Shown: one piece after another, positions 32,175 to 32,291 of the stretch
Numbering within the stretch: position 1 is the first letter of the stretch
Layout: every line of letters starts with the position of its first letter
Virus record (IMG/VR): IMGVR_UViG_3300023063_000002
Span: 12,415-76,414 of that record
Direction: 5' to 3' (one strand)
DNA length: 64,000 bases
Origin: a virus
Translations under genes and position numbers: made by a program
The notes under the pieces: generated by a model
Databases searched by the model: none
Told to the model about the DNA's origin: nothing
The model's input: only the letters and a program-made list of their open reading frames with translations

Positions 32175-32291
32175 CTACCAGAATTTGATGAGAAAGTGTA
32201 CAACTACTGCCAAAATAGCAATTGGAACAAACAGCATAAACAATGCAAAAATCAGTTCAAACAGTGTAAAGCCTTTTTGTTTATTGTGCAT
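32175..32291 (-). CDS. 38-aa prepilin-like membrane peptide (type IV pilin N-terminal cleavage/methylation motif)
   Basis: Hand translation MHNKQKG|FTLFELIFALFMLFVPIAILAVVVHFLIKFW; AGAAAG ribosome-binding site 6 nt upstream; below the ORF-track size cutoff. Confidence 0.7.
   Translation of the reverse strand: MHNKQKGFTLFELIFALFMLFVPIAILAVVVHFLIKFW

Follow-up and report, generated by a model that had tools for sequence, protein, structure and literature searches.

Introduction

Phage pilin mimicry and headless pilin stubs are already in print. F10-like Pseudomonas aeruginosa phages encode, as prophages, the protein P-FimU, which becomes part of the pilus and keeps phages from adsorbing (PMC12952977). 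This protein has the full size of a minor pilin, head domain included; it supports twitching, is located at the pilus tip and excludes only phages that bind there (PMC12952977). P-FimU is the only phage pilin mimic that has been shown experimentally to alter pilus-dependent infection. Truncated PilA-like proteins of ~60 N-terminal residues are encoded by six virulent Pseudomonas phages (PMC12952977; bioRxiv 10.1101/2024.03.29.587342), and either incorporation into pili or inhibition of pilus assembly has been proposed for these stubs (PMC12952977).

Pilin N-termini have further been studied as signals. CIP, a segment made up of the 17 N-terminal residues of mature Caulobacter PilA, is enough to signal via the transmembrane helix of PleC, and the synthetic CIP peptide cuts phiCbK susceptibility by 77% (PMC7196804). 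As cited in the same article, intramembrane sensing between PilA and PilS takes place in P. aeruginosa (Kilmury and Burrows 2016, cited in PMC7196804).

Here, we describe a phage peptide that is considerably shorter than the published stubs. It is encoded in a viral sequence that occurs, among the sequencing runs searched, in one DNA run, a leaf-litter metagenome that is probably its source, and in no RNA run; the window, by which we mean the whole stretch of 64,000 nucleotides that was analysed, covers positions 12,415 to 76,414 of IMG/VR record IMGVR_UViG_3300023063_000002. Our results show that the open reading frame in question, which we call the mini-prepilin, is a real gene encoding the 38-residue precursor of a phage-restricted peptide family. 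Our search of the literature on phage pilin-like peptides, on PF07963 in phages and on the tail motif found no description of this tailed mini-prepilin family. New in this study are the delimitation of the family and the finding that its mature lengths are fixed and its tail invariant. Also new are its connection with a wider group of phage peptides that are not pilin-like and the naming of cultured carriers.

Position and start signals of the mini-prepilin gene

The gene and its flanking signals are arranged as follows.

32175-32291, minus strand: mini-prepilin coding sequence, 38 amino acids, complete, with ATG start and TAG stop (32175-32177); PF07963 match and AlphaFold2 model
32271-32291, minus strand: basic leader of seven residues with Gly(-1) last, read from the sequence; predicted cleavage after the Gly
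32253-32270, minus strand: pilin-type mature start F-T-L-F-E-L (Phe+1, Thr+2, Leu+3, Glu+5, Leu+6), identified from family counts and PDB profile matches
32178-32198, minus strand: C-terminal tail H-F-L-I-K-F-W with the stop codon directly after it, the family-defining motif
32298-32303, minus strand: AGAAAG ribosome-binding-like site, 6 bases 5' of the ATG; same hexamer at similar spacing before the next gene
32298-32333, minus strand: upstream intergenic module, 36 nt, 92% identity to 32121-32156
32121-32156, minus strand: second module copy, 3' of the mini-prepilin, heading the next gene (31715-32113)

An earlier sequence-only reading of this DNA had picked out a 38-residue open reading frame behind an AGAAAG ribosome-binding site and an intergenic module common to its neighbours. 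The frame, with the noted sequence, is confirmed on the minus strand at 32175-32291; the hexamer stands six bases before the ATG, and the two module copies agree at 92% of positions. JGI/IMG had called the protein as well, without a name. In all six frames of the window, the mini-prepilin is the only class-III-like open reading frame.

The upstream module begins on the stop codon of the preceding gene and contains TAATTAAACAG at 32322-32332, followed by TTATAATTCAATAGAAAG. With at most one mismatch, TAATTAAACAG occurs at 15 sites in the window vs. 2.8 expected, almost always on the coding strand. The sites lie at gene boundaries and include 31696, 32145, 32322, 37529 and 55073 (all minus strand), and the copies often begin on the stop codon of the upstream gene. 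TAATTAAACAG may serve the phage's own polymerase as a signal for transcription or processing. Since a module copy lies on each side of the mini-prepilin, the open reading frame forms a unit of its own between two gene-boundary modules.

Prepilin likeness of the N-terminus

The basic leader, Gly-1, Phe+1, Glu+5 and hydrophobic helix described in the sequence-only reading were all found, the leader having two Lys and one His with the Gly at its end. The N_methyl family PF07963 matched the mini-prepilin above its gathering cut-off (23.1 vs. 21.2 bits, E = 5e-5). The score of TIGR02532 fell just under the cut-off (16.2 vs. 16.3).

A profile of 137 family members matched 19 chains among the solved structures, every one of which is a type IV pilin. 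The best matches were MshA (2.4e-6) and Geobacter PilA-N (4e-6), and the others included PilA, PpdD and PilE. These matches span the leader and the first ~20 mature residues only; the tail had no match to any solved structure (PDB) in this comparison. Known families searched with the mini-prepilin gave no match to the tail either, and a feature search of the ESM Atlas gave no usable match. Two other candidate identities were rejected. The PHROG matches (phrog_10597, 13641 and 13280) were weak and concerned uncharacterised families, and the score for the NCBIfam 'KGW motif small protein' was far below its cut-off (18.5 vs. 35).

AlphaFold2 predicted a single helix for the mini-prepilin, comprising residues 10-37, with a mean pLDDT of 91.8. 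The prediction of a four-copy complex returned a score of 0.09 (mark 0.42), which we count neither for nor against such an assembly. The globular alpha-beta head that follows the alpha1 helix in pilins is absent, as the peptide stops 31 residues past the predicted cleavage site. The earlier remark that a globular domain is lacking thus holds, for the hydrophobic stretch runs to the end of the peptide and leaves no room for one. As Glu5 and His25 stand nineteen residues from each other, the mature peptide would have about the length of one bilayer.

Prepilin-type subfamily and its carriers

We searched 1.84 billion representatives with a profile of the window peptide and the cluster of its homologue in Aeromonas phage Ahp1 (E <= 1e-3). 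This search recovered 228 cluster representatives at 50% identity, nearly all of 36-46 amino acids and aligned end to end; the near-universality of the N-terminal motif among them stems partly from retrieval, because the search profile contained that motif.

Residues were counted in 151 of these peptides. The +1 position was occupied by Phe in 97 and by Tyr in 44 of these (141/151 together), Leu+6 was found in 123/151, and Thr+2 and Glu+5 in 148/151 each. The front fits the sequence definition of the class III (prepilin) signal that had been claimed for it, in the canonical type IVa / T2SS style, and in the subfamily this motif is under very strong selection. Gly-1 was present in 151/151 by construction, as the count required Gly; two further members have Ala. 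The leaders were mostly 6-7 residues long with a net charge of +2 or +3. Mature length was quantised, with 34 residues in 119/151 and 31 residues in 19/151 of the peptides, and the window peptide belongs to the class of 31. In 149/151 peptides, the C-terminal end lies exactly at the Trp.

Among cultured phages, tblastn matched two unrelated Aeromonas phages, each with a full-length relative at 47% identity. Aeromonas phage vB_AdhS_TS3 is T5-like and has a homologue of 37 codons, the ATG of which overlaps the stop codon of the upstream gene. This homologue (L001:2498-2611; GenBank OP820700.1, 7483-7596) has no CDS annotation, and a hairpin lies 3' of it. In the T4-like Aeromonas phage Ahp1_CNU-2021, the homologue is a hypothetical protein of 42 amino acids among tRNA genes. 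The DNAs of the window, TS3 and Ahp1 have diverged, while both ends of the peptide are conserved. This conservation of full-length relatives in unrelated phages bears out the view of the open reading frame as a genuine conserved gene. A homologue search with the 42-residue Ahp1 peptide returned only the Ahp1 peptide itself and one near-identical cluster. Another prepilin-type member gave only short N-terminal tblastn matches to annotated pilin genes of cultured phages. Two non-pilin tail peptides gave no tblastn match in cultured phages, where the low-complexity filter probably hides members.

A lambdoid Burkholderia gladioli prophage carries one member, which lies immediately 3' of a CI-like repressor gene and has its orientation. 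More members came from pattern scans of IMG/VR and metagenomes, on contigs of 8 kb to 360 kb; IMG/VR contigs bearing members reach 429 kb. A tail-based scan of one genome per species, covering 185,579 species, confirmed no relative. The family is almost entirely viral. Some sources label members as 'prepilin-type N-terminal cleavage/methylation domain-containing protein'. Cyanomyoviruses of the ACG-2014f / S-CAM7 group encode a 'pilin' with an N-terminus similar to that of the Ahp1 mini-peptide; in Synechococcus phage ACG-2014f it is annotated as a full-size gene of 127 amino acids (L004:759-1142; NC_026927.1).

C-terminal tail and the wider superfamily

The sequence-only reading overlooked the invariant C-terminal motif H-F-x-x-K-F-W. 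In all family members, the peptide closes with the consensus H-F-[IVL]-x-K-[FY]-W immediately before the stop codon, and alignments A2 and A4 show no variation at the His, Lys and Trp of this tail. We scanned viral contigs for the tail alone, as a fixed 24-base pattern encoding H-F-[IVM]-x-K-F-W plus TAA. The pattern matched 102 stretches, where by our own rough estimate a handful would be expected by chance, and ~70 of the 102 form the C-terminus of a small, strongly hydrophobic open reading frame.

After removal of duplicates, 18 of these mini-peptides had the prepilin motif and 52, about three quarters, did not. Since the majority of tail peptides lack the prepilin motif, the pilin-like front is not the defining trait and marks a subfamily rather than the whole family. 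The earlier reading had named loss of the motif in orthologs as evidence against itself. No such loss is seen within the subfamily, but at the superfamily level the motif is lost in most members. The sequences thus indicate that the tail-bearing single-helix peptides make up a superfamily, in which the prepilin front characterises one large subfamily. Because the non-pilin members are in the majority, the core function of the superfamily cannot depend on PilD.

Tail-bearing peptides are roughly 27-46 amino acids long with a single helix, and the window peptide, with H-F-L-I-K-F-W followed by TAG, qualifies as one of them. Their loci span 24-65% G+C, and a wide range of G+C is covered by the pilin and the non-pilin kind alike. 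Only 14 of 47 non-pilin tail peptides have a Gly after a short leader. The N-terminal net charge of the non-pilin members is mostly 0 or +1, a value that does not settle their topology under the positive-inside rule.

Several contigs bear two tail peptides near each other. Contig L010 has one prepilin-type and one non-pilin copy, at 2657-2779 and 3383-3496, ~600 nt apart, and this co-occurrence suggests that the one form does not make the other redundant. Two non-pilin copies each are found on L109 (7129-7227 and 8448-8576) and L120 (1556-1651 and 1661-1768). The member at L003:3986-4069, directly after a large terminase gene, still has a short leader with Gly as well as the tail, but its F-T-L-x-E-L block is gone, so that it resembles an intermediate that links the two forms and arose by deletion.

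Phage and genomic neighbourhood

The window belongs to a siphovirus, with a tape measure protein, a major head protein, a portal and a large terminase. The portal has 46% identity to those of roseophage DSS3_VP1 and Pelagibacter phage Kolga. All long open reading frames of the window lie on the minus strand. Its replication and metabolism genes include a ribonucleotide reductase, a primase-helicase, a DNA polymerase, a ligase and a single-subunit RNA polymerase. The mini-prepilin is part of an array of small genes between the replication and packaging modules, and its neighbours have no informative family. A megablast search with the 2.1-kb neighbourhood gave no match among cultured phages.

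Directly downstream of the mini-prepilin lie two tandem paralogues of 141 and 132 amino acids (31238-31663 and 31715-32113, minus strand), both of phrog_17693. Their first 22 residues are identical, and stretches of their DNA have 79-94% identity. Elsewhere in the window, a protein of 1489 amino acids (18877-23346, minus strand) has an N-terminus matching head-morphogenesis / minor head (MuF-like) PHROGs, and its residues 993-1106 match phage RNA polymerase families. Judged from these matches, it is possibly a capsid-carried polymerase; a separate RNA polymerase of 505 amino acids is encoded at 60801-62318. The tape measure gene (4984-13614, minus strand) encodes 2876 amino acids. Tail length is ~0.15 nm per tape measure residue, so the tail would be unusually long, at >400 nm.

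Around 98 distinct family members we found no generally conserved partner gene, only clusters of closely related contigs. Among 148 immediate neighbours, the commonest PHROG families were DNA-metabolism and small-terminase proteins, and no endolysin, holin or spanin was among the 25 commonest. No pilus, type II secretion system (T2SS) or peptidase genes were found near family members.

Possible functions of the peptide

In our view, the single most likely outcome, for which we would still put the chances somewhat short of even, is that the mini-prepilin forms a stalk that interferes with the type IV pilus, the T2SS machinery or pilin sensing. The precursor would insert into the inner membrane with its leader on the cytoplasmic side, and a host prepilin peptidase of the PilD/GspO type would remove the leader and methylate Phe1. 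What remained would be a headless stalk of 31 residues that matches a single bilayer in length; Glu5 would lie at the inner face, and His, Lys and Trp at the outer face. Such a stalk would mimic the pilin alpha1-N helix and could engage the assembly platform, the peptidase or pilin-sensing kinases, and the function of the type IV pilus and/or the T2SS would be disturbed during infection. The phage would most likely benefit by shutting out competitors that depend on pili, or by a general takeover of the host. A second contact, common to the non-pilin relatives, would be made by the conserved tail. Precedents for this reading are P-FimU, together with the stubs discussed alongside it, CIP and the PilA-PilS pair.

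To our knowledge, the only machinery that reads the prepilin motif is the prepilin peptidase together with the type IV filament assembly and sensing apparatus, and for this reason we consider that the host peptidase probably processes the mini-prepilin. In favour of this, the subfamily conserves Thr+2, Leu+3, Glu+5 and Leu+6 to the same degree as true pilins do. Non-pilin relatives do without Thr+2 and Glu+5, which indicates that a generic membrane helix needs no such residues and would be sufficient for the task of the tail. Against a role at the pilus, the window shows nothing that points to pili: it has neither pilus nor T2SS genes, and nothing in it backs the piliated host hinted at in the sequence-only reading. 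Furthermore, the receptors of T4-like and T5-like phages are mostly outer-membrane proteins or LPS. As the Aeromonas carriers are T4-like and T5-like, what they would gain against pilus-dependent phages is not obvious.

The main alternative, a serious one although we put its chances below even, would be that the tail is the effector. The helix would then present H-F-x-x-K-F-W to a widely conserved envelope target other than pili or the T2SS. The prepilin front would serve only to insert, orient or mature the peptide, and the host peptidase would be borrowed for processing. This would fit the absence of the pilin motif from most tail-bearing peptides and the invariance of the tail His, Phe, Lys and Trp, with 149/151 peptides stopping exactly at the Trp. 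It would also fit the presence of both types on L010 and of two non-pilin copies each on L109 and L120, and the wide G+C range of the loci (24-65%), which points to many host groups. Yet it leaves the fixed mature length of 34 or 31 residues unexplained, and equally the tight retention of Thr+2, Leu+3, Glu+5 and Leu+6. Strom and Lory are said to have found in 1991 that cleavage by the peptidase needs essentially Gly-1 alone. The tail itself, moreover, has no match among solved structures or families. Possibly, though we think it less likely than not, the tailed mini-peptides form a very widespread class of phage membrane effectors with one conserved envelope target. The prepilin-type subfamily would then recruit the host peptidase for maturation or activation, or the type IV filament machinery for movement. 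If this were true, the virus would borrow a pilin-processing pathway for a non-pilin cargo.

It seems improbable that the pilin likeness is incidental and that the peptide oligomerises to depolarise or permeabilise the inner membrane, in the manner of lysis-timing, holin-like or type-I-toxin-like peptides. Small membrane toxins and pinholin-like peptides are of similar size and hydrophobicity, and the single helix with a conserved His and Lys near one end would suit such an activity. However, lysis families are missing from the 25 commonest PHROG families of the neighbours, and the genes sit among small accessory and DNA-metabolism genes. A specific recognition motif conserved at each end of the peptide, furthermore, argues for protein partners. 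It is hardly credible that the mini-prepilin is an open frame which arose by chance between two genes and has its motif by coincidence. The frame is indeed very short, but it matches PF07963 above threshold and has hundreds of full-length relatives whose ends are conserved and whose DNA has diverged. The TS3 homologue has a start codon that overlaps the upstream stop codon. Without the open reading frame, the flanking genes of the window would be separated by a gap of 216 nt, and yet this gap holds two copies of the gene-start module.

Significance

The mini-prepilins are the shortest stubs, and they form a large and sharply delimited family in which a mature peptide of 31 or 34 residues spans one membrane. 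The cultured carriers, two Aeromonas phages and the B. gladioli prophage, make the idea of a headless stalk testable. If pili or the T2SS are disabled, nature would have provided, in these peptides, very small inhibitors of widespread virulence machinery, and superinfection would commonly be excluded by this route. If the activity resides in the tail, they would represent a new class of phage membrane effectors. Mini-prepilin genes routinely remain unannotated, and one cultured carrier, TS3, lacks any CDS call for its copy.

Comparison with known systems

Like P-FimU, the mini-prepilin, as known from its sequence, is a phage gene product that copies a type IV pilus subunit. It differs from P-FimU in having no surface-exposed part.

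The CIP and PilA-PilS systems offer another parallel, since in these a bare pilin stalk resides in the inner membrane, where it is active, binds the transmembrane helix of a sensor kinase, and reduces both the function of pili and the susceptibility to a pilus phage. In contrast to the mini-prepilin, those stalks are host-derived fragments used as tools and not natural phage genes. Caulobacter PilA, in addition, is a type IVc (Flp-like) pilin with a signal different from that of the mini-prepilin.

Geobacter PilA-N ('Geopilin domain 1', 61 residues when mature) is a natural short pilin, and its alpha1-N helix is among the best structure matches together with those of MshA, PilA and PpdD. All four are host structural subunits encoded in pilus loci and lack the tail motif, and even PilA-N is twice as long as the mature mini-prepilin.

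PfsE of the Pf filamentous phages is reportedly a membrane peptide of ~30 amino acids that inhibits type IV pili and binds PilC. The resemblance is that of a tiny phage peptide in the inner membrane, PfsE being said to shut down type IV pili and thereby to prevent superinfection. Unlike the mini-prepilin, however, PfsE is said to have neither a prepilin signal nor the tail motif.

The truncated PilA-like stubs of Pseudomonas phages likewise are phage-encoded, consist of a pilin signal and an alpha1 helix without a head, and invite the same two ideas of incorporation into pili or inhibition of their assembly. Their carriers are non-temperate, as are those of the present family save the one B. 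gladioli prophage. Going by the published description of the stubs, the mini-prepilin is set apart by its 38-residue precursor and its 31-residue mature form, and probably by its H-F-x-x-K-F-W tail. It also belongs to a superfamily that has non-pilin members and extends over many phage lineages and G+C ranges.
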